Assembly: GCA_016933055.1 (NCBI GenBank)
Contig: JAFGBS010000028.1
Location: 90,001-122,000 of the forward strand
DNA from: Promethearchaeota archaeon
GTDB taxonomy: Archaea > Asgardarchaeota > Lokiarchaeia > Sigyniarchaeales > Promethearchaeaceae
Length of the DNA: 32,000 nucleotides
Direction: 5' to 3'
Part shown: in pieces, positions 1 through 20,927 of the stretch
How positions within the stretch are numbered: the stretch's first letter is position 1
Layout: each line of letters starts with the position of its first letter
Translations under genes and position numbers: made by a program
Notes under the pieces: generated by a model
Seen by the model: only the letters and a program-made list of their open reading frames with translations
Told to the model about the DNA's origin: nothing
Database searches by the model: none

Positions 1-767
1 AAAAATTCATCAGCAGCAAGAGTGGTCTCAATTCTTTGAGTGGGAATTTTTATATATTGTAATCCTTGAGTTAGCATCAAGATTAACCAAAATGTTGTGA
101 CAAATTTCACAAGTTCCTTTTTAGACGCAATTAAGAAATTTCTTAAGCGAGTTTTTCGAATTGTTAAGAGGAACTTCTTCCGAATCTGGTAGAACTTCAT
201 ATGAGTGTCATTACGCTTAAAAGTCCACAAAATTACATTATAGAGAAGTTTCCCCGAAAATAAGCCCAAATTTATCCATGAAATTACTTTCAATATCCAT
301 CTAAAGTTATTAGACAAAAATAATACCCCTGCAATTACGTATCCCACTCCAAATATTATTACTCCTAGTAAGAACATCATCATCCCCCAAATCGAAGTAA
401 ATTTGAGTGCATCGAGTAAAATATTGGATATTATACTTGTTTTTATCATATGATTGTATCGATATTTGTCCAAAATTAGCAGTATTGCTCGTATAATTAT
501 ATAAAATAGCACTAATATGATGATCCAATAAGAAAAATCTAAGCCTACAATTAAGAAAGTACCAATTAATGGTTCAAAAATCACTCTAAGTGGGTGAATA
601 ATGGATTTATATGAGGAAGTTACATCCATTTGAGATAATGCATCATAAAACACTGGGTTTCGAGAGCCTACAAATGCAATATAAATTAACCATCCGATAA
701 AGGCACCGAATCCGAGAGTAGTCAGAATTTCAAGTAAATTTTTGTGAAGTAAAATCCGTATTTTCAT
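1..767 (-). CDS. Multi-pass membrane protein, 3'-truncated by the window edge (absent from ORF track)
   Basis: Manual translation from the ATG at 767 gives MKIRILLHKNLLEILTTLGFGAFIGWLIYIAFVGSRNPVFYDAL... with no stop to position 1 (about 255 codons). It has several hydrophobic segments and starts 32 bp after the stop of the alpha/beta hydrolase on the same strand. Confidence 0.85.
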   Translation of the reverse strand, partial: MKIRILLHKNLLEILTTLGFGAFIGWLIYIAFVGSRNPVFYDALSQMDVTSSYKSIIHPLRVIFEPLIGTFLIVGLDFSYWIIILVLFYIIIRAILLILDKYRYNHMIKTSIISNILLDALKFTSIWGMMMFLLGVIIFGVGYVIAGVLFLSNNFRWILKVISWINLGLFSGKLLYNVILWTFKRNDTHMKFYQIRKKFLLTIRKTRLRNFLIASKKELVKFVTTFWLILMLTQGLQYIKIPTQRIETTLAADEF

Positions 768-3988: not shown

Positions 3989-5512
3989 TTGGTGTATACA
4001 ATGAGTTCTTCCTCCCGAGAGTTAATTTTAAAAAATTCTATTATTTACGATGCTAAAAATCAAATTAATGGTGAAACAATAGATCTACTAATCAGAGATG
4101 GTAAAATCGTTGAATCCTTGAAAGATGAATCCTCAGCACAAGAAATCGATGGGAAAGGATACATCACCTTCCCAGGGTTTATTGATATGAGATGCCACTA
4201 TTATGCCCAAGAGACAATCTATCACCAATTACTTAATCAAAAACATAACACTCGCAATTGCATAGCAAGTGCGCAATTACTAGAGAAAAATGCATTGCAG
4301 CAAGGGTTTACTTTTCTCTGTGAAATGGATGTACCCCCTACCCAATCAAAAATCGCCTTACAAAATATGACTCTAGGACCGTTATTGGATCATCTATTAA
4401 TAATGGATTTTGGGTCCAATTGGGCTTTTATGAGTGATTTTGAAACAGAAAATCCGGTAGAAACAATTGCTTATACATTGTCAATGCTCCTAGGAATAGT
4501 TAAGGGAGGCGGTATTTCCATTACTTGTCCCTATCATCAGCAATATTGGAATTTAAAGCCGATTCTTCCCAATTCCTCAATTCCTATAATGAAAATCCTA
4601 CCACAAAAGCTTTATTCGTTATTCACTAAGGCCGCAAACTTACATAACATTTCTCCGTACTTTTTATCTCCTTATTTCGATGAAGATAATCCGATCACTT
4701 TACTTAGCATTCTAAAAGAATTGGGACAACAAGATTTTGTTCTATCTACAGTAAACCATTACTTCAAAAGTGAATGGAAAGAATTGGAAAAAATTTATTC
4801 GGCTCAAGAAAATCTCGTCTGCGAAGTTACTCCTTTCACTACTGATCATGTTAACCCGTTAATAACTCGTGATAGAAATTTTGCTTTAAGTGAAAGCAAG
4901 CATTCGGGAATCCCCATGATAGCCGTTGATGTAGAATTTGATACGGAGTATTATATAACGGGGCGAAAATTCGAAACAGACTCCCCTCTACAAATTGATT
5001 GGGTTAAATTAATTCAAAGTTTCAAAAAGAACTGTGGATTGGATCGAGTTATCTTATCCAGTAATGCTCCGTACAATATGTGCATTTCAGATTGGTCAAA
5101 GCATCTTGCAAGATTATTAACTCAATCCAATCATGAATTGGATCTATTTGATATTTCTAGAATTTTATCAACCAATCCGGCGCAGATCATAGGCTTAGAT
5201 AGCAGAAAAGGTCATTTAGGAGTCGGTGCTGATGCTGATATAGTATGTTTTCAAGGAAATCCTGAAAACATAAACGAAACGCTATTCAAAGATTCCGAAA
5301 TTGTTATGAAAAATGGCAATATAGTCAAAAAGAGAACCAATTTGATTACACTAGATAAACCACTTGGGAAAATATTCTGGACTGAGGGTAATTATGATCC
5401 TTTAAAAATGGATAAATTACGTCCTAAGAAAGAGAAATTCTATGATAAACGGTTTTCAATGTACTTGGAGGCATTAGAAAATCCTAAAATATCCATTATG
5501 GAAAAAATCTAA
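3989..5512 (+). CDS. Amidohydrolase-fold protein homologous to formylmethanofuran dehydrogenase subunit A (FwdA), metal ligands apparently lost
   Basis: LLIRDGKIVE, PGFID and NPAQIIGLDSRKGHLGVGADADIV mark the amidohydrolase fold. GFTFLCEMDVPP, FGSNWAFM, VDVEFDT and the C-terminal region track FwdA as I recall it. The HxH motif reads DMRCH. Confidence 0.75.
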   Translation: MVYTMSSSSRELILKNSIIYDAKNQINGETIDLLIRDGKIVESLKDESSAQEIDGKGYITFPGFIDMRCHYYAQETIYHQLLNQKHNTRNCIASAQLLEKNALQQGFTFLCEMDVPPTQSKIALQNMTLGPLLDHLLIMDFGSNWAFMSDFETENPVETIAYTLSMLLGIVKGGGISITCPYHQQYWNLKPILPNSSIPIMKILPQKLYSLFTKAANLHNISPYFLSPYFDEDNPITLLSILKELGQQDFVLSTVNHYFKSEWKELEKIYSAQENLVCEVTPFTTDHVNPLITRDRNFALSESKHSGIPMIAVDVEFDTEYYITGRKFETDSPLQIDWVKLIQSFKKNCGLDRVILSSNAPYNMCISDWSKHLARLLTQSNHELDLFDISRILSTNPAQIIGLDSRKGHLGVGADADIVCFQGNPENINETLFKDSEIVMKNGNIVKKRTNLITLDKPLGKIFWTEGNYDPLKMDKLRPKKEKFYDKRFSMYLEALENPKISIMEKI

Positions 5513-5618
5513 AATACTTCCATACTTTTCATTTTACGGATTCTAGAGAATAGCAAAGATGAATATTTTTTAACACTGAGGTTCTTTTTATTTTCATATT
5601 GGTTTCTGGGGCTTTTTC

Positions 5619-7949
5619 ATGGAAAAAATAGGTCTAGCAATTTGCCATTGTGGCTTAAATATAGCGGGAGTACTCGATATAAAGAGAATAAAGAATTTTT
5701 TTAAAAAAGACCCTAAAAATCTCTATGTGTTCGACGAGAATTATTTATGTTCCGATGCGGGATTAAAAGCGATAGATGATATAGTGGGGGAGCAAAAGAT
5801 AACTCGAGTAGTGATAGCAGCATGTTCTATTAAACTCCATGGAGATATGTTTCGTGAACATTTTGAAAAAATCGGCATTTCCCGAGACTTAGTTGCTTTT
5901 GTAAACATCCGAGAACAAAATTCATGGGTTCATACTAAAGAACCAGCTTTAGCCACACAAAAAGCTATTGAACAAATCCAAGCGAAAATTGAGTATGTAA
6001 AACTTCTAGAACCTCAAGAAAGGGTAAGAGTTCCCGTTACACAAGAAGCTTTAGTTATAGGGGGGGGTATAGCAGGTATACATGGTGCTCTTGCGATAGC
6101 AAATGCTGGATATCATGTCTATTTAGTGGAAAAAGATTCCACAATTGGGGGTCACATGCCTTTATTTGATAAAACTTTTCCCACTATGGATTGCTCAATT
6201 TGTATTCTAGGTCCGATAATGAACGAGGTAAAAGAACACCCTAACATTACATTAATGACTTACACTGAAGTAATTGATGTTTCTGGATACATAGGAAATT
6301 TTCAAGTGAAAATAAAGAAAAAAGCACGGTACGTGGATTTGGAAAAATGTGTAGGATGTTTTGACCTTTGTCGGGGAGTGTGCGATGTCGAATTACCTGG
6401 TCGTTTTTTTCCTATGAAAGCAATTGATGTGAAATTTCCGGGTGCAATTCCATTAGTACCCGTTATTAATATGGACTATTGCACTGGCTGTGGAGCATGC
6501 GAACTTGCGTGTGATAGAGAGGCTATAATATATGATGATAAAGATGCGATTGAGGATATTAAAGTCGGAGCAATCTTGGTTGCTACAGGTTTCAAGGATT
6601 TCGATCCAACTGGGCTTCGAGAGTATAAATATTCTCTGAATCCAAATATTATTACTGCATTGGAAATGGAGAGGATGTTAAATCCTGAAGGACCTACTCG
6701 GGGAAAAATATCTGTACCCTCAACCGGGCTACCCCCAAAAAAAGTCGGATTTATTCTCTGTGTCGGTTCTCGAAACAAAAATTTGAATAGAGAATACTGT
6801 TCTAATGTTTGTTGCATGTATTCCATTAAACAAGCAATTTTGATCAAAGAGCGAGTCCCGAATTGTGAAGTGTATGTGTTTTATAACGATATCCGCGCAA
6901 ACTTCAAAATGGGGGAGAACTTTTACAATCGGGCACGTGAAGAAAATCATATTCATTTTCAAAAAGGGACAGTATCTGATATTCAGTCTATTAACGGAGA
7001 GGAAGACGATGCACCTACAATAAAACTTTTTGCAGAAGATACTATGCAAGGTGTACGAATGGAAGATGAATTTGATCTTGTTGTACTTGCAACTGGGATG
7101 GATCCTCCTGATGATACTGACAAAATTGCTAATATGCTGAATATTTCAAAAGATCCTTACGGATTTCTCATGGCAAGTCATCTGAAAGTTCGACCATCGC
7201 AATCTTCTCTGCACGGGATTTATCTAGCTGGTACTATCCACGGACCTAAAGATATTCCTAGTAGTATTCTACAAGCAGAAAGTGCCGCGGTAAAAATACT
7301 TTCTATTTTGATCAAAAAAGAATTAGAAATTGCTGCGGTAAAAGTCCATTTGGATGAAGATAAATGTGACTTATGCCGATTATGTCTTGATGTATGTGAT
7401 TATCAAGCATTGTCCATAGAGAATAAGAAAATAGTGCTTAATTCTGCTAACTGTCTTGGATGTGGGGCATGCGCAGCAATGTGTCACACAAACGCATTGT
7501 GGATCCCTGGATTCAGCTCAGAACAGATTGAACGACAAATAGACTCATACCTAGCGAATAAGTCTCAGGCTCCCTTAATTCTTGCATTTCTGTGTAATTG
7601 GTGCGCGTATCCGGGAGCTGATCTAGCGGGTACAAATAAAATACAATACCCCACAAATATACGAGTGATACGAGTGAATTGTGCTGGGATGGTTAATCCC
7701 TCATGGGTAGTCAAAGCCTTATTGGAAGGTGCTGACGGGGTAATTGTTATCGGGTGTTACGAACAAGATTGCCATTTCACCTCAGGATTTACCAAAGCGA
7801 AAAATTGGCATGAATCTACACTCGCTATACTGGAGGAATTGAACATTGATACGAATCGGATTCGATTGGAGAATATTTCTGCGGGTGAGGGGAAAAAATT
7901 CGCTGATATAGTTTTCGAGTTTTCAAACTCATTGATAAAAAAGAAATAA
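5619..7949 (+). CDS. hdrA: Heterodisulfide reductase subunit A fused to C-terminal MvhD (hydrogenase delta, [2Fe-2S]) domain
   Basis: N-terminal ICHCGLNIAG...REQNSWVH, FAD motif VIGGGIAG, FPTMDCSIC, FILCVGSR/CSNVCC and four ferredoxin CxxC..CxxxC motifs. The C-terminal AFLCNWCAYPGADLAG...RVNCAG...GADGVIVIGC...DCHF is MvhD. Confidence 0.95.
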   Translation: MEKIGLAICHCGLNIAGVLDIKRIKNFFKKDPKNLYVFDENYLCSDAGLKAIDDIVGEQKITRVVIAACSIKLHGDMFREHFEKIGISRDLVAFVNIREQNSWVHTKEPALATQKAIEQIQAKIEYVKLLEPQERVRVPVTQEALVIGGGIAGIHGALAIANAGYHVYLVEKDSTIGGHMPLFDKTFPTMDCSICILGPIMNEVKEHPNITLMTYTEVIDVSGYIGNFQVKIKKKARYVDLEKCVGCFDLCRGVCDVELPGRFFPMKAIDVKFPGAIPLVPVINMDYCTGCGACELACDREAIIYDDKDAIEDIKVGAILVATGFKDFDPTGLREYKYSLNPNIITALEMERMLNPEGPTRGKISVPSTGLPPKKVGFILCVGSRNKNLNREYCSNVCCMYSIKQAILIKERVPNCEVYVFYNDIRANFKMGENFYNRAREENHIHFQKGTVSDIQSINGEEDDAPTIKLFAEDTMQGVRMEDEFDLVVLATGMDPPDDTDKIANMLNISKDPYGFLMASHLKVRPSQSSLHGIYLAGTIHGPKDIPSSILQAESAAVKILSILIKKELEIAAVKVHLDEDKCDLCRLCLDVCDYQALSIENKKIVLNSANCLGCGACAAMCHTNALWIPGFSSEQIERQIDSYLANKSQAPLILAFLCNWCAYPGADLAGTNKIQYPTNIRVIRVNCAGMVNPSWVVKALLEGADGVIVIGCYEQDCHFTSGFTKAKNWHESTLAILEELNIDTNRIRLENISAGEGKKFADIVFEFSNSLIKKK

Positions 7950-8102
7950 TATAAATGTAAAAATATACACGCCGGATATGAAAAATTGCACTTCTTTATC
8001 CAATTACGTTGATCTTGATACCATTTTTGCATAGAAATCAATAGGTGGTTCTTTATACAAATTAAAGGTACAAAAAATTAGAGAAATAAAAACAAAAATT
8101 AC

Positions 8103-8450
8103 TTATTCCATTATTGACTTAATTTGCCGGCTAATCAATCCTAATTGATTTTTCGCGTCTTGACCCACAAAGCATATGATAGAATATTTTGATCCATAAG
8201 CAATTACTGCATATCCCTTACTTAAGGTGATAGTCAATTCTTTTGGACTCCCTTTGCTTATATTAGATCCCAATAGTGTTAAACGGGGAAGTAACTCAGA
8301 TGCTGCTTTCGCAATCTTGCTAGTATCATCATTTGCAATAGTTTGACCCGAGATAACATATCCTTTCGGATCAAATGCGACAATTCCCTCAACCTCAGCA
8401 ATTTCACTCATAATATTCGCTAATTTTGGTTCTATTTCCTCTTTCGACAT
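8103..8450 (-). CDS. Roadblock/LC7 (MglB/LAMTOR-like) domain protein
   Basis: 115 aa with helix-VEGIVAFDPKGYVI-helix-three strands-C-terminal helix (QLGLISRQIK). GAGGTAAG lies directly upstream of the ATG. Confidence 0.85.
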   Translation of the reverse strand: MSKEEIEPKLANIMSEIAEVEGIVAFDPKGYVISGQTIANDDTSKIAKAASELLPRLTLLGSNISKGSPKELTITLSKGYAVIAYGSKYSIICFVGQDAKNQLGLISRQIKSIME

Positions 8451-8608: not shown

Positions 8609-8905
8609 TTACTTCAAAACGATGAGATTAAGACCCTCAGTGTTCGCGATCATTACTTCTCCTTTTTGAGTTTCAAGTCTTACAAAAGCAAGCTCTCCTT
8701 CCTTCAAAGCATCGCAGATATTACGAGCTCTTCCGATCAATGAAGTTATATATGCAGCAGTTTTTTCTGTTGTTTCTGTATCTAAGTCACTCTGAATTGG
8801 TAAGCCCTCTTGATCACAAACAATTACTCCACGAACGCCTTCCATGGAGGAGAAGCGCTTAACAATAGCACGTATGCTTTTTCCATCAATCATCGCGATT
8901 TTCAC
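8609..8905 (-). CDS. Roadblock/LC7 protein resembling dynein light chain roadblock (DYNLRB); likely start ATG at 8893
   Basis: KRFSSMEGVRGVIVCDQEGLPIQS...ARN...LAFVRLETQKGEVMIA...LIV matches the DYNLRB-type pattern. It lacks the extra C-terminal helix. Confidence 0.88.
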   Translation of the reverse strand: MKIAMIDGKSIRAIVKRFSSMEGVRGVIVCDQEGLPIQSDLDTETTEKTAAYITSLIGRARNICDALKEGELAFVRLETQKGEVMIANTEGLNLIVLK

Positions 8906-9643: not shown

Positions 9644-12600
9644 ATGTCAGACGCAGCAGAATACTATCAACGGGGCTTAACATTTCTTTCTGAAAAACCT
9701 CCTAATCTTATTAAAGCTCTATCCTTAATACGTAAAGCTAAATTATTGTTCGATCAAAAAGGGAATGAGAGGGAATCTGAGGCAGCACAGGATAAAATCT
9801 ATTTTGTATACATTTCTTTAATCGAAAAAGAGTATGAACAGGCAAAAAATTTCTTGACGATAGGTTCTTTTGAAAAAGCTCTATCAAAAGGAGTGGATGC
9901 CTACTCTCATTTAGATAAATCCTCTCCTAAATATAGCCAAAAAACCTCAAAAAAAATTGAAAATTTAATAGAACAAATTGCAATTGAGCTTTTATATGAT
10001 ATAGAACGTAGTCAAGATAAGATTTCCATTGATGAATCTCTTAGCAAATTGCACTATGTAGAACGGGTCATCCTTGATGTTTTTTATTCTCATCTCAAAT
10101 CCTCCAGTGACAAGGTTGAAATTCCTGAAAATTTCATAAAAGAAATCCAAGATAAACGCAAAATCCAACGTGCATTCATTAATATTTACGAATCGCTAGG
10201 GAATCACTCAAAAGATTTAGCAAAAACGTATATACAAGAGGGAAATATCACTCAAGGAGCTATATCTCTTAATCTAGCGAAACAATTATATGAAACCACT
10301 GGTTCTACCCAGCGATTAGACGATCTTAAGCCTTTATATCAAAAAATCCATGAGGCTCAAGGTGACCTTGCATATACTAATGCCGAACAATTGATGCAAG
10401 AAAATCGACTGGAAAAGGCTCGAAATCAACTAAAAAAAGCTCGTGATTTCTATTCTATATCTCAAAATGATAAAAAGAAAAAAGCTGCTGAAGAGTTATA
10501 TCTTAATGTGTCGGTCGAATTGGGCGAAAATCTTCTCGAGGATGCTGAGAAAGCTTTAGAACTAAATGATATGAAATCTACGATTGACTATTTGAAAGAA
10601 GCGTATGATTTTTTTAGTAAAATCAATCATAAAAAACTAAAGCAGCAAACTGAACAGAAATTAAATAGAGTGTATTCAGTATTAGGAGATAGAGAATCTG
10701 AACTTGCAGAACAAGTTGATCCAAGCGATATAATCAATAAAAACCTCAGTAAATTAGATCTTGAGGAGTATAGCTTCCAAAGTGAGTTTTTTTTGACTTC
10801 TGAACTTATTTCTCAGAAATTACAGAGATTACATGGTGCTTCCTATTATTACCAAAAAGCGCATAATGAGATTCAACTTAAGAAAAACGAACGCAAAATT
10901 CATAGTTATACAGAAAAGATCGCTAACTTATACTTAAATCAAGGGAAAAGGGATTTTAAAAATAGAGAATACGAAAAAGCTCAAATTCATCTAAAAAAAA
11001 GCATCTTCTATTACCAGAATAACAACCAAAAAATTAATAGTATTCGGGGGATGCTCCAAAAAATCGAACCCAAAATTAATGCCAAAAAACTAGAAAAAAT
11101 TAAAAAATCTTTAATTCAGTATAATGAATTAATTTCCGAGCAATATATAGGAAATCCACCTACTTCTGGAGTGAATCTCCATGGGGATACCACTGATCAG
11201 CAATATCGATGCAAAAATTGCGGAAATTGGGTACAAGCATATTATTATGATTCCATTCAAGAGAGATGTTTAGAATGTCGTTCACGGATAATATGCGATG
11301 AATGTAGGAAAGAAATTGGACCGAATGAAATATATCAGCAATGTTTAGGATGTAAGGCTATTTTTTGTTTAGATTGCGCTGAACGAGTATTTGATTTCAT
11401 CCAAAAAAAATGTTTGAGCTGTCGAGTTGTCCAAATTTGTGATATTTGTCAAAAAGAAGCAAAACCAACTGAAAGTTTCAGTGAGTGTCCCCTCTGCCAC
11501 AAAATATGTTGTACTTCACACTTCGATTTTCAACAAGGTTTATGCAACGAATGTCGACAAATCATTAAATGTTCACAGTGTGGGGTTGAATTAAATAAAG
11601 AAGACGTATTTGTCTGTGACGTTTGTAAAAACGTTTTTTGCGCTAAACACTTCGATGTTGGGAGAAATACATGTATTCAAGATCGTAAAGAAGAAATCTG
11701 CGCAAAATGCGGAAAAATCTTGAAGAAAGAAGATTCAGCAAACAAATGTCCAAAATGTGGTTTTATGTACTGTACAAATCACTTCTCGGAGTTTCACGAA
11801 ATGTGTACGGTCTGCCTTCCAAAATTAGAATGTTCATTTTGTGGTATGGACTTATCCAAGGAAAATTTTTTCCAGTGTAACGATTGTAAAAAAGTGTTTT
11901 GTCGGGATCATTTCAATTCAGCTTTGGGAAGGTGTTTATCTTGCACAGAGAAGGTGAGCACAGTAAAAATAAATGCAATCGGAGTTCAAACAATCACACA
12001 AGACGCTACTCAGATGTATGATTTACAAGCCAGCACAATGCAGCCGATTATTGCAAAATTTAATCGTGGGGAGGTTCTCGAATCGGAAGAAATCGATTTT
12101 CTTTTGCGACATCAGATCAATTTACCCATAGATGAGGAAAAATATGTGAATATAGGTTCTACTCAGAACGTTATGGTACTAATTCGGCAACCTGACAATA
12201 AACCTTACGTTGTACTTGTTCCAGAAACCCCAATTGTAATTGATGTGAAATACTATGGGGATCTTTTCCGTAAGCTAATTCCATATCTTCCTGAAGTTCC
12301 ACTCACCATCGATGGAATGACGAGTATTGTGAACTTAATATTTTATGCCTCAAATAATCCCCGATGGGCTTTAATGTACGAAATATTACATCAAACTTTA
12401 TTGAAAACTGGAATAGAAGTGTTACATGTACTTGTCTTGGTGTTCAGGAAAGCGAATACAGAATTAATAAGTCAATCAATATCAGACTCTATCCTAGAAA
12501 AAAACTTTTCCGGTACAAACATAAAAGAAGCTCTCAAATTTATTCAAACTAATGATTCTGAAGATGAAGTGGGATTGTTTTCAAATAATGAAAGATTGGA

Positions 12601-12691
12601 CCAATTACTCAAGGTTTTTTATAATCTTCACCGGGGTAATGTACTACGTGCTGCAGAACTACTTGCTATCTATGAAATCGATCCGAAATAA
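9644..12691 (+). CDS. Large protein: TPR/alpha-SNAP-like helical repeats + five tandem 8-ligand Cys/His zinc fingers + unassigned C-terminal domain
   Basis: The N-terminal ~480 aa carry recurring A..L..A..(F/Y) helical pairs. Residues ~523-767 hold five units of CxxC-x11/12-CxxC-x4-Cxx(H/C)-x7/11-Cxx(C/D) plus one half unit. GAGGT lies upstream of the ATG. Confidence 0.9.
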   Translation: MSDAAEYYQRGLTFLSEKPPNLIKALSLIRKAKLLFDQKGNERESEAAQDKIYFVYISLIEKEYEQAKNFLTIGSFEKALSKGVDAYSHLDKSSPKYSQKTSKKIENLIEQIAIELLYDIERSQDKISIDESLSKLHYVERVILDVFYSHLKSSSDKVEIPENFIKEIQDKRKIQRAFINIYESLGNHSKDLAKTYIQEGNITQGAISLNLAKQLYETTGSTQRLDDLKPLYQKIHEAQGDLAYTNAEQLMQENRLEKARNQLKKARDFYSISQNDKKKKAAEELYLNVSVELGENLLEDAEKALELNDMKSTIDYLKEAYDFFSKINHKKLKQQTEQKLNRVYSVLGDRESELAEQVDPSDIINKNLSKLDLEEYSFQSEFFLTSELISQKLQRLHGASYYYQKAHNEIQLKKNERKIHSYTEKIANLYLNQGKRDFKNREYEKAQIHLKKSIFYYQNNNQKINSIRGMLQKIEPKINAKKLEKIKKSLIQYNELISEQYIGNPPTSGVNLHGDTTDQQYRCKNCGNWVQAYYYDSIQERCLECRSRIICDECRKEIGPNEIYQQCLGCKAIFCLDCAERVFDFIQKKCLSCRVVQICDICQKEAKPTESFSECPLCHKICCTSHFDFQQGLCNECRQIIKCSQCGVELNKEDVFVCDVCKNVFCAKHFDVGRNTCIQDRKEEICAKCGKILKKEDSANKCPKCGFMYCTNHFSEFHEMCTVCLPKLECSFCGMDLSKENFFQCNDCKKVFCRDHFNSALGRCLSCTEKVSTVKINAIGVQTITQDATQMYDLQASTMQPIIAKFNRGEVLESEEIDFLLRHQINLPIDEEKYVNIGSTQNVMVLIRQPDNKPYVVLVPETPIVIDVKYYGDLFRKLIPYLPEVPLTIDGMTSIVNLIFYASNNPRWALMYEILHQTLLKTGIEVLHVLVLVFRKANTELISQSISDSILEKNFSGTNIKEALKFIQTNDSEDEVGLFSNNERLDQLLKVFYNLHRGNVLRAAELLAIYEIDPK

Positions 12692-12774: not shown

Positions 12775-13467
12775 ATGTCAAATTATTGTGCAAAATGTGG
12801 AGATCCGTTAGAGCCGGGTCAGAAATTTTGTGAGAAATGTGGGGCTCCTGCAGAAGCTATGAACACACCTCAGACCGCCCAACCAGCAGCTTCTAGTGGT
12901 CTATTTGATCCCTCGAGACAGTATTATATTCTTCAGGAAAAATACTGGTCATGGGGCTCGGGATCGATAATGGATGAGCAAGGTCAAGAAATTGGAAAGA
13001 TGCATAGGAAGGTGTTTTCGATTCGACAGAAAATAGAATTATTGGAATTAGATGGGACCGTTAGTGCCACAATTCATAAAAAAATTGTTGCGATTCGACC
13101 CACCTATGATTTGAAAGATGGGCAGGAAAATGATCTTGCACGGTTAAAAAAGACCATCATAAATGTCATCCGACCGAAGCTTTTCTTAGAAGACCCTAAT
13201 GGGAATGTGCTTTATGAAGCAAGAGGGAAATTTATGGGGTGGGACTTCACAATTACAGATCCATCAACTGGGACTCTAGTTGGGACCGTTAGTAAAACGG
13301 ATAGATGGAGGGATGTATTCCTTGGTGGTGTATTTAATTTTAAGGACACATACGCTCTTAAAATCGAAGATCCTACTGTTGATCGACGACTTTTACTTGG
13401 ATTCGTGTTGAGCATTGATAATTCACTCCACGATCAGGGTAAAACTGGTGGATTCCGTTTCGGTTAA
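12775..13467 (+). CDS. Zinc-ribbon + LURP-one/scramblase (Tubby C-like) domain protein
   Basis: N-terminal CAKCG...FCEKCG ribbon and an Ala/Pro/Gln linker. Repeated beta units (YYILQEKYWSWG..IMDEQGQEIG, LFLEDPNG, WDFTITD, DTYALKI) end in a helix (DRRLLLGFVLSID), as is typical of LURP-one/scramblase. Confidence 0.82.
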   Translation: MSNYCAKCGDPLEPGQKFCEKCGAPAEAMNTPQTAQPAASSGLFDPSRQYYILQEKYWSWGSGSIMDEQGQEIGKMHRKVFSIRQKIELLELDGTVSATIHKKIVAIRPTYDLKDGQENDLARLKKTIINVIRPKLFLEDPNGNVLYEARGKFMGWDFTITDPSTGTLVGTVSKTDRWRDVFLGGVFNFKDTYALKIEDPTVDRRLLLGFVLSIDNSLHDQGKTGGFRFG

Positions 13468-13491: not shown

Positions 13492-13560
13492 AGTCAATTT
13501 TAATGCGATTCTGGAATCAAAAAGGCTTTTTTTTCCAATAATCCCTCCCACATAAATTAA

Positions 13561-14688
13561 TTGAGAAAATTTCAAATACAACCCTCATTAACTACGTGTA
13601 TGCACGATCCGCTTTCTGAGTATCTAATTGAGAGATTTGACCTAAAATCAGAAGACCACAAATTATACTGCGATGTGGTAAAAACTGCTTTTCTACATCA
13701 TAAACATTCTCAAGGGGGAACTATTCTATTTGATGAAGAAACCTTTAACATCATGTTTGGGTCTCCGTATCAAGACAAAGATTTATTCATACGTGCAATT
13801 CATAAAGAAACCGGTGATTTGGTTGGCTTTGTAGGGGCTATCCCCCGTCATTTGGTGTATCAAGGAAAAGAATACAAATTTGGTGTTCCTGCGTGGATCT
13901 CTGTTCACTATAAACACCAAAAAAAGGGCCTTGCACGTGCGATGGGTATCAAGTTACTAGAATATGGTGCCAATACAGCAAGGTATGAAGGTGGATTTGT
14001 AGAATTTGATTCAGAAGATCATGGTTTAGAGGCATTTGATGCTGTATTTCGAGGATACGATTATGAAATCAATGATATTTTATCTATGGACAAGTTCGTG
14101 GTTCGTGCATTTGATGTTAAAAAACTGAGTTCCGTAATAAAATTACAGAAAATCGAAAAATTTGGATTGAGATTGCTTCAAAAAGTGCAAAAAGTAAACA
14201 ATCCACTAATACGTAAATCTAAACCTGAAGATCATGAGCGCCTTTATGAGTTACTTCAAGATCATATCGAACGAAATGAGTTGTCCGTTATTCGAGATAA
14301 GGAAGATTTTTTGTGGTATTTGCAACAACCTGGTGTGAACTGCGTAGTCCATGAAGATGAATCAGGTGCGGTAGATGGATTTATAATTGCTTGGAAATTT
14401 CAATTAGCTGGATTTGGAAACGCTATAAACTTTGGCTGGCTGGATTGCGTACATATCCATCGCCTATCCAGTAAAGATGCTTCAGATTTATGTAAATATT
14501 TATGTGTTGTCTCTAAAGAATTAGGATGGGAGGGTTTGCAGACTCCATACATTCCATATTTTGATCCCAAACCTTTCAAAAAAGCGAAATTCATATTTTA
14601 CCCCAAAAAACTAATAATTAGTAGTTTTAAATTCAGACCAACACCAATTCCAAAAAACGTAAAATCATTTTATTTTGATTGGAGATAA
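13561..14688 (+). CDS. Tandem-GNAT acyltransferase, N-myristoyltransferase (NMT)-like; start TTG 13561 or ATG 13600
   Basis: LVGFVGAIP, ISVHYKHQKKGLARAM, RAFDVKKL, IRKSKPEDHERLYELL, VVHEDESGAVDGF, SKELGWE and FKKAKF are colinear with NMT N- and C-domain segments as I recall them. Confidence 0.75.
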   Translation: MRKFQIQPSLTTCMHDPLSEYLIERFDLKSEDHKLYCDVVKTAFLHHKHSQGGTILFDEETFNIMFGSPYQDKDLFIRAIHKETGDLVGFVGAIPRHLVYQGKEYKFGVPAWISVHYKHQKKGLARAMGIKLLEYGANTARYEGGFVEFDSEDHGLEAFDAVFRGYDYEINDILSMDKFVVRAFDVKKLSSVIKLQKIEKFGLRLLQKVQKVNNPLIRKSKPEDHERLYELLQDHIERNELSVIRDKEDFLWYLQQPGVNCVVHEDESGAVDGFIIAWKFQLAGFGNAINFGWLDCVHIHRLSSKDASDLCKYLCVVSKELGWEGLQTPYIPYFDPKPFKKAKFIFYPKKLIISSFKFRPTPIPKNVKSFYFDWR

Positions 14689-14729: not shown

Positions 14730-17700
14730 TTAGTCCTCTAATCCCTCTTCTTTTAGGAGATCATCCAGATCTGCAGTTTCTTTTTCCTTTTCGGGAGTTA
14801 TAGCTTCCGATTCTTCCACTACATCCTCTGGTTTTTGTTTTTGTAATTTAGCTACTTCCACGTAACGTCCTCGTCTCGGTCGTTTTTCTTCTTTTTTCTC
14901 TTTTTCAGGTACTTTTTGTAGCTTTTTATAAGTATTCCAACTGAAGTATGTACTGCCCAGAATTAATCCGATCAATCCGATGAAAAATAATGTTTTAAAA
15001 AATCCATCCAAATTGTCAAGAAAAGATGAAGTTAGAACGGTTAATTCAAATGAAGAAGAATTTTGCACCACTTCATTAGAATCATGATTCTTACACGTCA
15101 CTTGAACTTGGATAATTCCTTCGTTTTCTTGATAAGAAGCTGGAATGGTGACATAATATTCAATGAAAAAGAACTCATAAGGATTCAATTGTTTTTCAGA
15201 AGAATAACTGATATCACCTATTCTAAATGTTGTGCCGGGAAAAGCAAAATCAACGGCAAAATCTTTCAAGGTGGAGTTTCCAATGTTGGTAATTTTAAAT
15301 ATTAAGGTATTTTCTTGTTTTTCTTTCAAAAACACTTGATCCGTGGAATTCACAATCTCAATCCGAATTGAATCGCTATAAGTTATCATTGCAAAATCCA
15401 AGGTAGTAGAGGTGCCAAAGATCGTTGTGTTTCCCATCCATGTCAGTTTTATTTTCAAATTGGTAGATTTAGAAACAATATTTGAATCAAAAGTACCGGT
15501 AAAAAAGCCGTTATCCTCTGTAACTAATTCTTTTTCATCAGTTTGGTTGAAAGTTATCCATTCAGACCCATTGAATACCTCAACCGAAATAGTTTGATTT
15601 TTTATATTTTGACTAAATTCATCCATTAAATACCCTTGAAGTTTAAAATCGCTCCCCCATATTAAGTCTACTGTGGAAACATCTGAGAATATAGCTATAG
15701 GTTTGGAATTGAAAGTATCATATTCTGATAGGGAACAAGTAACATAATAACTATCTGAGATTTGTAATAGGTATGTGGCTGTGGAATGCACTAACTCTTC
15801 TACACGGTTAATTTCAGCTGAAAAAATCTTTCCGATAGGTCCTGGGCGATGATGAATCATACTTTTCATCATTATTTTTCCTTCGAATTCTGTTTCTGAT
15901 TTTTCGATAAATGGGAATACAATATCTACAATCCGGTCATTAAGTTTTGCTCCATTTATTTCAGTTTGAATTTTTAATACAAACGGGTTTAAGCGAATCG
16001 GGGCATTTATTCCCTTATAATCTGTTGGAACAGTGAATTCTAATTCGATAGTATTGGATTCAGTTCCACTCCCTACCATTCCTAGTTTAAAACTTGTACT
16101 CTGTTCCATTACAATCCAATCATAATTTGTGGATTGCACAAACTGAGCATTTATCATTAAATCATTATCCCAATATAAGTTAAAACTCTCAAAGGTAAGA
16201 TTTACCTTGATAATTTCACCAGGATTAAATAATGATTCATTTACGAGTATATGAGTTAGATTTATGTCAAATCCATAATCGAGATATTCCCATCCCAATG
16301 TTTCGTTGATATGATAGTTTCCATCTCCAGAGGATCCTGTCGTATCATTAATTGCAAAAACTGATACATTATATGTAGATGCACTTGTTAAATTCCTCTG
16401 TATTGAAGAAAGAATCACATCCACACGCTTATTTAAATCCTCAGCGATATTCATTATATCAACGCCATATTCCATAATGAATATGGGTTGAATTTGGTAT
16501 CCTAATTCATTCCCTCCATTCCATTTGAAAACGAGGGAATATTTTCCCATTTGTGTTATCTCAGTAGTGTTCAAAATATTTTCAAAATCATATTGATAAT
16601 GGGTGAGTAAAACTGGTTTTCCATTAATTAAGATAGCTTCAGTATCGTCAGGAGTAGTATCCACTAACTCATTCGGGATTAAAAGTGCATTATCGGGATC
16701 ATAAAGATTGACAGTACTATCACCCGTAAAAATTTCAGAACTATTTTTAGTATAATTTAAAATTCCCATGCTTACTGAAATGTTATCTCCTTGCATAAAT
16801 CCATAAGTTGGCCAATAGTGGTCCTCATAATGAAGATAAGATTTCATCTCATGTACATAATTTGGACTATCTGCATAAAGAGAATATATACCATTCTCTG
16901 TTTCAAGAATCCAATATTCCACGAAATTCCCCTCAGTCGATTCTTCATAATCATCAAGTATTGAATTTCGATTTTCATCTAATAATTCTGTTACCGACCA
17001 ATCTACTGGAACAACAAAACTGAAATTTTTTAATGTCCAGCCCGTATAGATGGCAGAATTTAGGGTATAATTAAGCTCCCATGCGGGATTATCACCAAAT
17101 TCAACAGAAAATTTTGTTATTGTAGACTCAATATTATACACAACAGCTGTATAATTCACATTAAATACGAGATTTAGAGTTAATGATTTGTTGAACTCTA
17201 TTGGAATGGTAATATTATTCGCATCATCCCGTATCTCGGTTTCAAATATATGATTCCATTTTGCGAGCCCCCATCGATATCCCGAAGTTTGTGCATATAT
17301 TCCAGTAGTTAAAGAGTAGGATTTCACTGCTCTGTCGTCAATTTTCATATCTATTTCTTCAGGTAACCATGGACGTGTTAGGTTGATTGCAAAGGGGGCA
17401 GCATCTACTTGCCCTCCTCCCACTAATACTTTACTCCAAGTTCCCGGATTCCCATTACTGGAGCGTAAAAATAAATGGTCCACCCGTTGATCGGGATCCT
17501 GGTTCGTGGCATCTCCATCAGAATCCGAATATGGAATGGTCACTACGGAATAGATAGAACTTGTATTAGCACTTAAAACGACAAAGTAATTACTGACATT
17601 CAGTTCGATAGGAGAATGATCCGCATTGAATGGAATATAAGCGTATTCATCACCCTCATAGTTATCAATTATTCTACTATTCATAAGTAGTTCTGGTTCT

Positions 17701-18773
17701 AAATTCAATTGGGTAGTGGATACAACCGTGGAACGAGTCCCAGTTTGATTCGCGCGATACAATTTTACAGCGAGTTCCGAATTGGGTAAAGTAGGAGTTA
17801 AAGTGCGTATCCATGCGAAAAATCCCGTAACATTCACAATTCCTTGTACATCGAATTCCATGGCAACATAATTTGTAGTAGAAATCGCAGTTTCCGAAGC
17901 AATTAACGCTTCCACTTTTAAATCATTATATAGCACATAAAAAGAATTGAAACTATTCGATAATACTATAGTAATGTTCACTTGGTTATTTGCATTGAGA
18001 TATGATAATCGGGTATTGGTTAGAGTAATTTCTTCAATTAAATCAGGATCATTCCAAGTCTGAGTCTTCATTAAATCCAATTGACCAGTTTGAATATTTG
18101 TGAGATAGATCGTAGCTGTTACTGCTCTCGATATAATTCGATCCATAATCAATCGAAATCCTATCGTCCTTGCCTTAACAAAACCAGGCACATTCGTGAA
18201 ATTTGCGGAGTAGGTTATATTTACCATATTATCTGGAGGGGAAAATTCACTATTTAATCCTAAATAGGAATTTGGATTCGTGTCAACTAATCCCGTGAAA
18301 CCGGTGCTTCCAATTGTGGAAGTTCCATCGGTAATTATTAAACTATCGGTACTAGTTGACTCCGATGTAGTCCAACCTGGATTTTGACGGGAATTCTCAT
18401 CTGAACGAGGATAATCTAACACTGAATCGGTTTCAAATGTATGAACAGTTTCATAATCGCTCAGAATAGTAAAATTCATGGAGCTGGAATATACAGCAGA
18501 AGGGGATGTTGGTGTGGAAATATTAAAATCATCGACTTGATTTGATTCTGAATCAGTTTTTTGAACATATGATCTTACTGTTTGTGGGTCCCCAGAACCT
18601 TCCCACGGAACATCTAAATCCGTTGAGGACTGTACATTGTATAAATCTGGAGTTATAGGATCTTTGGCTATAGAAATAAAGCTAACTCCAATAAAAATAG
18701 TAAGTATAATAGCAGAGAATAATAACATTCCTTTTACTTGATTTTTCCGATAATTGTTCATAAAGCGTCTCAT
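14730..18773 (-). CDS. Large membrane-anchored surface glycoprotein (Ig/CARDB-like beta domains)
   Basis: N-terminal hydrophobic helix and a Thr/Ser/Asn-rich beta ectodomain with about 30 N-x-S/T sequons (counted by eye). A CARDB-like FKITNIGNSTL segment precedes a C-terminal TM helix (FFKTLFFIGLIGLILGSTYF) and a ~65-aa charged tail. Confidence 0.88.
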   Translation of the reverse strand: MRRFMNNYRKNQVKGMLLFSAIILTIFIGVSFISIAKDPITPDLYNVQSSTDLDVPWEGSGDPQTVRSYVQKTDSESNQVDDFNISTPTSPSAVYSSSMNFTILSDYETVHTFETDSVLDYPRSDENSRQNPGWTTSESTSTDSLIITDGTSTIGSTGFTGLVDTNPNSYLGLNSEFSPPDNMVNITYSANFTNVPGFVKARTIGFRLIMDRIISRAVTATIYLTNIQTGQLDLMKTQTWNDPDLIEEITLTNTRLSYLNANNQVNITIVLSNSFNSFYVLYNDLKVEALIASETAISTTNYVAMEFDVQGIVNVTGFFAWIRTLTPTLPNSELAVKLYRANQTGTRSTVVSTTQLNLEPELLMNSRIIDNYEGDEYAYIPFNADHSPIELNVSNYFVVLSANTSSIYSVVTIPYSDSDGDATNQDPDQRVDHLFLRSSNGNPGTWSKVLVGGGQVDAAPFAINLTRPWLPEEIDMKIDDRAVKSYSLTTGIYAQTSGYRWGLAKWNHIFETEIRDDANNITIPIEFNKSLTLNLVFNVNYTAVVYNIESTITKFSVEFGDNPAWELNYTLNSAIYTGWTLKNFSFVVPVDWSVTELLDENRNSILDDYEESTEGNFVEYWILETENGIYSLYADSPNYVHEMKSYLHYEDHYWPTYGFMQGDNISVSMGILNYTKNSSEIFTGDSTVNLYDPDNALLIPNELVDTTPDDTEAILINGKPVLLTHYQYDFENILNTTEITQMGKYSLVFKWNGGNELGYQIQPIFIMEYGVDIMNIAEDLNKRVDVILSSIQRNLTSASTYNVSVFAINDTTGSSGDGNYHINETLGWEYLDYGFDINLTHILVNESLFNPGEIIKVNLTFESFNLYWDNDLMINAQFVQSTNYDWIVMEQSTSFKLGMVGSGTESNTIELEFTVPTDYKGINAPIRLNPFVLKIQTEINGAKLNDRIVDIVFPFIEKSETEFEGKIMMKSMIHHRPGPIGKIFSAEINRVEELVHSTATYLLQISDSYYVTCSLSEYDTFNSKPIAIFSDVSTVDLIWGSDFKLQGYLMDEFSQNIKNQTISVEVFNGSEWITFNQTDEKELVTEDNGFFTGTFDSNIVSKSTNLKIKLTWMGNTTIFGTSTTLDFAMITYSDSIRIEIVNSTDQVFLKEKQENTLIFKITNIGNSTLKDFAVDFAFPGTTFRIGDISYSSEKQLNPYEFFFIEYYVTIPASYQENEGIIQVQVTCKNHDSNEVVQNSSSFELTVLTSSFLDNLDGFFKTLFFIGLIGLILGSTYFSWNTYKKLQKVPEKEKKEEKRPRRGRYVEVAKLQKQKPEDVVEESEAITPEKEKETADLDDLLKEEGLED

Positions 18774-19553: not shown

Positions 19554-20927
19554 TTGATTTCCCAATTAATTACCTCAACCCCTCAAAGCTCGTCTAAATC
19601 ACGATATATTGGTATAGACGTTTTCAAAGGGTGGGGTGTGTGGTATATGCTTATTATTCACGCTTTCATTCAGCAGATTGCAGGATATGATGGTTCTCTA
19701 TTCGTTAATGCATTAGCTCAAATCGATTCATGGTGGCCATATCTGTTAGCCGTACCTGTGGGAATAATCAGTCTATGGGGTTTCATGTTCGGTTTTGCTT
19801 TCGCTTGCACTGTCGCAATGCAAACTTTACGTTTAATTGATACGAATCCCAAACGAATCCCTAAATATATTTTTCATAAATTCATTATGGGATGTCTATT
19901 GCTTATACTCAACAAAATTGGATACACTATTTTTAATATCCCTTTTTTTTCAGATGGATCAACTTTATTTCCTACCCTTAGAGCAAATTATGATGCTAAT
20001 ATTTTGGATGCAATTGCATGGATGGGAGTGTTAGTTCCCCTATCAATTTGGTTTCTATACGGATTATTTCGGATAAAAAAGGGGGATCATTTGATATTTA
20101 CTCTACTTGTAATTTTGACTTTATGGTTTGCTCTATCCCCTACTTTGATCAGTTATGGGGAAATGGCGATATCATATCTCGAAACTAAAAAATTATACAT
20201 TTTTTCATTGATAATAAGTAAATTCACCCGTGGGAGGTTCCGCCTATTACCTGGGTTAGGTTATGGGTTTATTGGCAGTATTTATGCAACATTGCTATAT
20301 AAACAAGCTCAATTTAAGAAAATCATTCAATTTACCCTCTTTTTCTTTGCATATTGCATGATCGCATTTGTATTATGGATTTTTTTCATTGATCCATCAT
20401 GGTTCCAAAGTTTCACCGATGAAACAGTTCCAATTCCTCTAACCATTATCAGCATGTCTACTATGCAATTCTTGTTTGTTTTATTCATCCGTACTCATGA
20501 TTACCCAAAAAATGAGACAAAACGAGTGAAAGCTTCGAAAAGAACGACATTTTGGCGAAGATTTTCGGTATTTTCATTATCTGCATTTTCTATAGGAACA
20601 CCGATAGCAGATCGGATATTTTCCTGGTTCGTGCGATTCTGGGGGCCATCAGTGGATTATAGTGGAACTACCGGTGTATTTGCATGGACCATATGGCAAA
20701 TAATTGTTTTTGTTCTATTTATTTGGGGATTTTGGGAAATCATAGTACGAATATGGGAGAATTTTGAGTATAAATTTTCATTAGACTGGCTTTTAGCACA
20801 ACTTATGGCAATGCTAACGGGCACACAGATGAACCGCAGTGATGTTAAATACATTATCTACAACCCCAATTATTACAAAATTCCGGATGTCGCCTTTAGT
20901 CAACTAAAAGCAAAAGTCATAGACTAA
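19554..20927 (+). CDS. Multi-pass membrane acyltransferase, HGSNAT-catalytic/DUF1624-like
   Basis: RYIGIDVFKGWGVWYMLIIH is the R..xID..RG...MxxxH start of this clan. About ten TM segments. DAIAW and RLLPGLGY (FPLxPW-like) motifs. Confidence 0.7.
   Translation: MISQLITSTPQSSSKSRYIGIDVFKGWGVWYMLIIHAFIQQIAGYDGSLFVNALAQIDSWWPYLLAVPVGIISLWGFMFGFAFACTVAMQTLRLIDTNPKRIPKYIFHKFIMGCLLLILNKIGYTIFNIPFFSDGSTLFPTLRANYDANILDAIAWMGVLVPLSIWFLYGLFRIKKGDHLIFTLLVILTLWFALSPTLISYGEMAISYLETKKLYIFSLIISKFTRGRFRLLPGLGYGFIGSIYATLLYKQAQFKKIIQFTLFFFAYCMIAFVLWIFFIDPSWFQSFTDETVPIPLTIISMSTMQFLFVLFIRTHDYPKNETKRVKASKRTTFWRRFSVFSLSAFSIGTPIADRIFSWFVRFWGPSVDYSGTTGVFAWTIWQIIVFVLFIWGFWEIIVRIWENFEYKFSLDWLLAQLMAMLTGTQMNRSDVKYIIYNPNYYKIPDVAFSQLKAKVID

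Follow-up and report, generated by a model that had tools for sequence, protein, structure and literature searches.

Gene features and extent

The stretch of DNA analysed here, referred to as the window, comprises 32,000 nucleotides (nt) of a Promethearchaeota archaeon (Archaea; Asgardarchaeota; Lokiarchaeia; Sigyniarchaeales; Promethearchaeaceae; GenBank assembly GCA_016933055.1, contig JAFGBS010000028.1, positions 90,001 to 122,000 of the forward strand). It contains the gene for a protein of two GNAT lobes that is a real but distant relative of eukaryotic N-myristoyltransferase (NMT), homologous to it over both lobes. A reading frame on the forward strand is open from 13561 to 14688 and has 375 codons when counted from a TTG. 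The record holds a 100 % identical protein of 362 amino acids (aa) that starts at the ATG at 13600, and all aligned homologues start within a few residues of this methionine, so that the gene most likely extends from the ATG and encodes 362 rather than 375 residues. The TTG at 13561 is further disfavoured as a start because it is overlapped by the A+T-rich ATAAATTAA, which is possibly a TATA-like element upstream of the ATG. The original prediction had described a two-GNAT protein of 375 aa; the reading frame and the two lobes were borne out, and the length was revised. The gene is present as a single copy in the host genome (3.76 Mb, 36 contigs). The features of the gene, its product and its surroundings are listed in Table 1.

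Table 1 Features of the NMT-like gene, its product and neighbouring genes (positions are those of the window)
Feature	Position	Strand	Basis
NMT-like tandem-GNAT acyltransferase gene, 362 aa	13600..14688 (including stop)	+	Open reading frame (ORF), identical record, homologue starts
A+T-rich ATAAATTAA, candidate archaeal TATA-like element	13552..13560	+	Sequence reading, ~40 nt before ATG
N-terminal GNAT lobe, aa 1-170, presumed acyl-coenzyme A (CoA)-binding	13600..14109	+	Pfam matches, secondary structure of the model
Strand VPAWISVH, aa 96-103, opposite EINFLCVH of NMT	13885..13908	+	Alignments, conservation
HQKKGLA, aa 106-112, GNAT Q/R-x-x-G-x-A pyrophosphate-binding motif	13915..13935	+	Conservation, alignment
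Acidic/His loop DSEDHGLE, aa 137-144, after strand 5	14008..14031	+	Conservation; NMT alignment ambiguous here
C-terminal GNAT lobe, aa 204-344	14209..14631	+	Single GNATs align to 202..344; conservation
C-terminal tail FYFDWR-COOH, aa 357-362	14668..14685	+	Homologue ends, structural alignment
Zinc-ribbon and LOR/scramblase-like (tubby-fold) protein	12775-13467	+	Pfam; 132 nt upstream of the NMT-like ATG
1347-aa ORF, no Pfam match	14730-18773	-	1339-aa counterpart, same order, in L008 (68 % identical relative)
457-aa ORF, no Pfam match	19554-20927	+	453-aa counterpart, same order, in L008
HdrA-like flavoprotein, several 4Fe-4S domains, fused to MvhD/FlpD domain	5619-7949	+	
Roadblock/LC7-type gene, first of tandem pair	8103-8450	-	Pfam
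Roadblock/LC7-type gene, second of tandem pair	8609-8905	-	Judged from sequence alone
1015-aa protein, helical repeat-like N part, then many CxxC...CxxC zinc-finger-like repeats	9644-12691	+	No Pfam match

Sequence similarity to N-myristoyltransferase

A single-sequence phmmer search against all Protein Data Bank (PDB) chains returned ten sequences; every one is an NMT, and the N and C lobes are matched in the same order. A family profile was prepared from 30 homologues, and 44 of its 47 matches in the PDB were NMTs (best E 1.6e-11, over profile positions 16-264); the other three were two single-domain acetyltransferases and Eis (E 3.1). Comparison of the family with 12 eukaryote-type NMTs using hhalign gave a probability of 99.3 % and an E value of 1.1e-20 over 277 columns, reaching aa 317. 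The N half of the protein matches the Pfam families Acetyltransf_9 (34 bits) and PF01233, the N-domain of NMT (27.8 bits, cut-off 25; aa 41-115), and the latter is matched by 28 of the 30 homologues at E <= 0.01 (best 6.4e-12).

Several segments of the protein had been paired with human NMT1 in the original prediction. The pairs LVGF..IP, [IL].VH....K.LA, R..[DN]VK.L, [IF]R....D, VV.E and K..G were reproduced by HMMER and hhalign, and the K[FA]KF pair by a MAFFT alignment of 87 sequences, in which F331 is conserved in the Asgard, other prokaryotic and eukaryotic groups. The placement of VPAWI opposite EINFL was confirmed by the alignments. That of VEFD opposite YTAG is insecure, as HMMER and hhalign place the stretch differently. 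In the MAFFT alignment, P56, V75-G76-F77, P82, V102, A112, R169, R205, D211, E252 and F331 are common to the Asgard proteins and eukaryotic NMTs, and V75-G76-F77, P82, R169, R205, D211 and F331 are also kept in the other prokaryotic group.

Predicted structure and chain end

The alignment behind the family profile was also used for an AF2 model, which was obtained with a pLDDT of 90.6 and a pTM of 0.89. The best 50 PDB and best 30 Swiss-Prot matches of this model in Foldseek were all NMTs (TM ~0.72-0.76; E 3.7e-19), and several of the alignments, including those with human NMT2 and mouse NMT1, reach the last residue of both proteins. With E values of 1.6e-11 (profile), 1.1e-20 (hhalign) and 3.7e-19 (Foldseek), the likeness to NMT greatly exceeds what chance would give. 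An exhaustive structural alignment against 48,161 PDB representatives (VIA), independent of Foldseek, placed yeast NMT at Z 28.9 (334 residues, root-mean-square deviation (rmsd) 3.2 Å, model residues 3..362 on chain residues 74..455) and Cryptosporidium NMT at Z 27.6. Below NMT, after a gap, were MAB_4324 (PDB 7q3a; 20.1), Eis (18.3; 17-18 for PDB 3sxn and 9mva), a clavulanate tandem GNAT (17.4), HisAT (15.0), MshD (13.9) and FemX/FemA (13-14). In the same search, single-domain GNATs aligned to model residues 202..344 at Z 10-11.

Model residue 362 superposes on Leu455 of yeast NMT, the last residue of that chain. In NMT, the carboxylate of this C-terminal residue acts in catalysis, and in the predicted model residue 362 is its structural equivalent. 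The claim that the two chains end in about the same register was upheld by both structural comparisons and by the MAFFT alignment. Among the 120 homologues listed, the chain ends in [W/F]R in all 120, in WR in 119 and in exactly FYFDWR in 93; all stop at the same residue, and none is one residue longer. The lack of such extensions is to be expected of a functional terminal carboxylate.

An Eis- or FemAB-type enzyme mis-read as NMT-like would share part of this evidence, since Acetyltransf_9, the N domain of Eis, is the top Pfam match, MAB_4324 and Eis are tandem GNATs with an Acetyltransf_9-type N lobe, and VIA aligns Eis residues 1..402 with 7..362 of the model. Eis also uses a C-terminus near its active site. 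NMT is, however, far ahead in both profile (E 1.6e-11 against 3.1) and structure scores (Z 28.9 against 18.3, rmsd 3.2 against 6.2 Å), and neither MAB_4324 nor Eis gave a significant sequence match. Eis (PF13527, PF17668 and PF13530) has a third, SCP2-like domain, whereas the Asgard chain stops after the second GNAT and no further Eis domain was found in it. FemAB and FemX gave no sequence match in PDB or Pfam and lie far below NMT by structure. This reading is therefore disfavoured and considered highly improbable, and both the profile comparison and the structure prediction with Foldseek, which had been proposed as checks, favour NMT over Eis, FemAB and other tandem GNATs by a wide margin.

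Conserved residues and differences from eukaryotic NMT

The EINFLCVH strand of NMT has a beta-bulge and an oxyanion hole, the latter formed by the backbone of its aromatic and aliphatic positions. In the strand that reads VPAWISVH in this protein, the Asgard family retains these positions as W99 and I/L100, with P97 invariant and W99 nearly so. The adjoining HQKKGLA motif aligns with K-L-R-S-K-R-L-A of NMT and is conserved at H106 (30/30 homologues), Q107 (27/30), G110 (27/30) and A112 (28/30). The loop after strand 5 has the family consensus EPEQHGID, with G142 invariant and H141 present in 27 of 30; lying in the region of the NMT YTAG, it may form part of the acceptor site. The C lobe is strongly conserved (R205, D211, D236, W265, LAGFG, GW and GW..Q.P..Y[FY]) and has R205, D211 and F331, the last just ahead of the final strands, in common with NMTs.

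Eukaryotic NMT (EC 2.3.1.97; PF01233 and PF02799) is likewise a tandem GNAT, colinear with the Asgard protein over both lobes, and is its best PDB match by profile and fold; the identity, however, is only 13-19 %. About 70 N-terminal core residues of NMT, including the HxFWxxQPV (FWxTQPV) segment, and its ribosome-binding extension have no counterpart in the Asgard protein, and the alignments start at residue 74 of yeast NMT and at position 61 of the NMT profile. The Asn of EINFL is replaced by Ala (A98) here and by Ser, Ala, Gly or Thr across the family, and at the Thr position of YTAG the aligners put either D140 or A145, but never a Thr. In NMT, this Asn and Thr bind the Gly amine of the substrate (N169/T205 in yeast, N246/T282 in human). 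The CoA motif is of the acetyltransferase type, QxxGxA, and the tail reads YFDWR, whereas NMT has a hydrophobic tail of its own, G-[LIV]-[VI]-[LM]-x.

The protein does not belong to the eukaryotic NMT family proper, because it fails at the Asn and Thr positions, in the N-terminal segment and for the NMT_C domain. It fits better as an Asgard clade among the uncharacterised tandem GNATs of the prokaryotic NMT type. Most likely the acceptor, perhaps together with the acyl chain, differs from the Gly-peptide and myristoyl-CoA, since the Asn, Thr and N-terminal segment of NMT are not kept. The caution in the original prediction that the acyl donor or acceptor may differ was thus apt, and its central suggestion of a prokaryotic relative of NMT is supported by the profile, hhalign, Foldseek and VIA results.

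Distribution and wider relatives

A word-indexed search recovered 158 proteins, nearly all of 360-365 aa and usually annotated merely as 'GNAT family N-acetyltransferase'; named members are from Promethearchaeota, Lokiarchaeia, Heimdallarchaeota, Hodarchaeota, Thorarchaeota and Sigynarchaeota. Strong matches were found in 43 of 301 species genomes sampled from the host phylum, some of which carry two to four copies. They are concentrated in three families (6/6, 25/28 with one weak match included, and 11/11 genomes), and most other families of the phylum gave nothing or weak second-tier matches; the distribution within the phylum is patchy and not phylum-wide. No fused forms were seen among proteins of 635-2000 aa, which is weak evidence. 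One copy in the same phylum (G026:C1:1011617-1012699) is interrupted by three stop codons, and one of its pieces matches on the opposite strand. NCBI labels one family member of 51 % identity (P0019) as Smithella sp.; its cluster occurs on 30 contigs, the longest of 160 kb, and mis-binning of the contig is a more probable explanation than a copy in a bacterium.

When 1.84 billion representatives were searched exhaustively with the profile, only 219 proteins were recovered at E <= 1e-3, with a gap in score between the Asgard clade at ~357 bits and the remainder at 117 bits and below. This second tier (40-117 bits) consists of proteins of ~330-410 aa, many ending in Y-x-D/E-x-R, and includes eukaryote-type NMTs at ~45-55 bits, one protein of a Thermoplasmata archaeon and one clade found in a bacterium of the Anaerolineae. 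By features and by shape, the ESM Atlas clusters nearest to the Asgard protein are bacterial (Aminicenantota, Pseudomonadota, Acidobacteriota, Myxococcota and Chloroflexota), with TM 0.83-0.87 over 345-348 residues to the last residue, and eukaryotic NMT clusters follow at TM 0.78-0.81. These prokaryotic NMT-type proteins (~330-365 aa, bacterial with one Thermoplasmata member) resemble the Asgard protein in length, stand-alone form and fold to the last residue, and many have Y-x-D/E-x-R tails; the Asgard clade differs in being a separate branch (100/100) with its own FYFDWR tail and C-lobe blocks.

A recent study of HisAT distinguishes the HisAT type, with a beta-hairpin, from the NMT type, with the C-terminus at the active site, and notes predicted structures of the NMT type in both archaea and bacteria, from which activity cannot be inferred (PMC12219266, 2025). 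Its structure table contains a Thorarchaeota protein (A0A3L6J856) and a 'Euryarchaeota' entry named glycylpeptide N-tetradecanoyltransferase. As cited there, NMT is usually described as eukaryote-only (Meinnel et al. 2020). HisAT/NAT16 (PDB 9emd) is a double GNAT of similar size with archaeal relatives and tolerates long acyl-CoAs (PMC12219266); it gave no sequence match and a Z score of only 15.0. In its predicted model the Asgard protein is of the NMT type and not the HisAT type. A search of one literature library found no paper in it explicitly linking Asgard archaea to an NMT homologue.

Phylogeny

A careful maximum-likelihood (ML) tree of 87 sequences groups the Asgard clade with a small sister clade (99/97) and nests it among the prokaryotic NMT-type proteins. 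The eukaryotic NMTs form one long branch, which joins the tree at a four-way polytomy basal to the prokaryotic radiation. A genome scan with the alignment of the sister clade gave no match. A quick tree separated the eukaryotic from the Asgard clade, and a tree constrained to unite them scored slightly better. Approximately unbiased (AU) tests of a clan of Asgard and eukaryotic NMT sequences gave p 0.69 on the quick tree and p 0.35 on the careful tree with the sister clade included. The sequences were chosen by likeness to the Asgard profile, and the tree sample is biased for this reason. A sister relation of Asgard and eukaryotic proteins is neither supported nor rejected by these trees and tests.

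Gene neighbourhood

The upstream neighbour, a zinc-ribbon and LOR-like gene, and the 1339-aa counterpart of the downstream gene are retained in a relative of 68 % identity (L008), where the LOR-like gene occupies 1-557; this adjacency is not kept in more distant Asgard genomes. The LOR-like protein is not a Gly2 substrate, because it starts MSNY. Homologue loci in L. ossiferum, a 4.36-Mb Lokiarchaeota genome and a Heimdall metagenome-assembled genome have no neighbours in common, and the gene contexts in bacteria and the sister clade are unlike one another. In L. ossiferum (L001), a gene for a Ras/Arf-like small GTPase (5191-5799), the product of which starts MTASK, lies 200 nt upstream of the homologue, and a CDP-alcohol phosphatidyltransferase gene (7197-8156) lies 36 nt downstream; neither recurs at the other loci examined.

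In the sister clade (L010 621-3641), ABC-transporter genes precede the homologue with a gap of 20 nt. At L011 5001-7364, the gene for a more distant relative (P0200) is followed after 150 nt by a stand-alone gene of the LPG_synthase_C type (MprF C-domain-like). Further upstream in the window are the tandem Roadblock/LC7-type genes listed in Table 1. In Asgard archaea, pairs of this kind are usually found together with small GTPases; no GTPase ORF was found between this pair and the next gene.

Possible function

The protein is probably a stand-alone, single-copy, NMT-built tandem-GNAT acyltransferase that transfers an acyl group from CoA to an amine, and represents an Asgard clade within a wider, mostly bacterial NMT-like family. 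By analogy with NMT, the N lobe would use its HQKKGLA motif to bind acyl-CoA, the backbone amides of the bulged strand P97-A98-W99-I100 would polarise the thioester carbonyl, and the acceptor amine would sit in a groove formed by the conserved C lobe. The carboxylate of R362, held by Y358, D360 and W361, may fold back into the active site as the base. It is from the fold and the invariant chain end that we infer N-acyl transfer with the enzyme's own carboxylate as base.

Several points weigh against this reading. Pfam NMT_C (PF02799) was not detected in the 362-aa protein and is matched by only 4 of the 30 homologues at E <= 0.01; the C lobe is nevertheless covered by hhalign and by the fold comparison with NMT. 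The top single-domain Pfam match is Acetyltransf_9, at 34 bits against 28 for NMT. The placement of the C-terminus depends on a predicted model, and the invariant G142, H141 and the acidic residues after strand 5 could provide a base other than the C-terminal carboxylate.

For the acceptor, the best guess is a protein or peptide alpha-amine, held tentatively and at a little under an even chance, ahead of a small-molecule or lipid amine, to which somewhat less weight is given. An N-acetyl or short-acyl transferase acting on the amine of a small molecule or lipid head group, like HisAT/NAT16, MshD, Eis or GlmA, would owe its likeness to NMT to shared fold ancestry only. The acetyltransferase-type Q-x-x-G-x-A motif and the Acetyltransf_9 and Acetyltransf_1 matches are consistent with such an enzyme, and small molecules are the substrates of many characterised tandem GNATs from prokaryotes, which score Z 14-20. 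Membrane or lipid genes adjoin some relatives (CDP-alcohol phosphatidyltransferase, LPG_synthase_C, ABC-transporter genes beside P0151 and the LOR/scramblase-like gene), and the acceptance of long acyl-CoAs by HisAT indicates that the fold is versatile (PMC12219266). However, the family has no conserved neighbourhood throughout, as would be unusual in an enzyme of a pathway. Every small-molecule tandem GNAT scores 8 to 9 Z units below NMT, and the C lobe and terminal residue are as strictly conserved as in NMT. A small-amine transferase is accordingly regarded as possible, with a probability clearly short of one half.

A true glycylpeptide N-myristoyltransferase, transferring C14 or similar long chains to the N-terminal Gly of Asgard proteins such as small GTPases, would imply that N-lipidation predates eukaryotes. 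Both sequence and structure match NMT best, from end to end and with the C-terminal residue included, a clan of Asgard and eukaryotic proteins is not rejected by the AU tests, and acyl-CoAs are available in the host, as judged from its six acyl-CoA dehydrogenase genes; a small GTPase gene also lies directly upstream of the homologue in L. ossiferum. Against this, the NMT Asn, Thr and FWxTQPV-bearing N-terminal part are missing, and the relatives nearest in structure are bacterial. A total of 46 Arf/Ras-like matches were found in the host genome, and a plausible Met-Gly start ahead of the P-loop was seen in only one of the 44 ORFs examined; the L. ossiferum GTPase, too, begins without Gly2. Two studies of Asgard Arf-like GTPases found neither Gly2 nor myristoylation signals, and showed that the proteins bind membranes without being myristoylated (PMC11914678; bioRxiv 10.1101/2024.02.28.582541). 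A true NMT is therefore unlikely, and the tie to eukaryotic myristoylation of Arf-type GTPases implied by the original prediction was not sustained, given mostly bacterial nearest relatives, the near-absence of Gly2 in the host GTPases examined, the missing Asn and Thr, and trees that do not resolve an Asgard-eukaryote sister relation.

Significance

N-myristoylation belongs to the set of membrane-targeting tools considered in discussions of eukaryogenesis. It is very unlikely that eukaryotic NMT has the Asgard FYFDWR clade as its sister or stock and that this clade already acylates protein N-termini with fatty or other long chains in Asgard cells; if it were so, N-terminal protein lipidation would have been inherited from the archaeal host and not invented after eukaryogenesis. 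The Asgard protein is not by itself evidence for an archaeal origin of myristoylation, because the same build is common in bacteria. As a conserved Asgard enzyme with NMT-like lobes and, according to the predicted model, a similar use of the chain end, it is an expressible candidate with which to ask where that chemistry arose, and any biochemical result on this uncharacterised prokaryotic NMT-type family would be informative.

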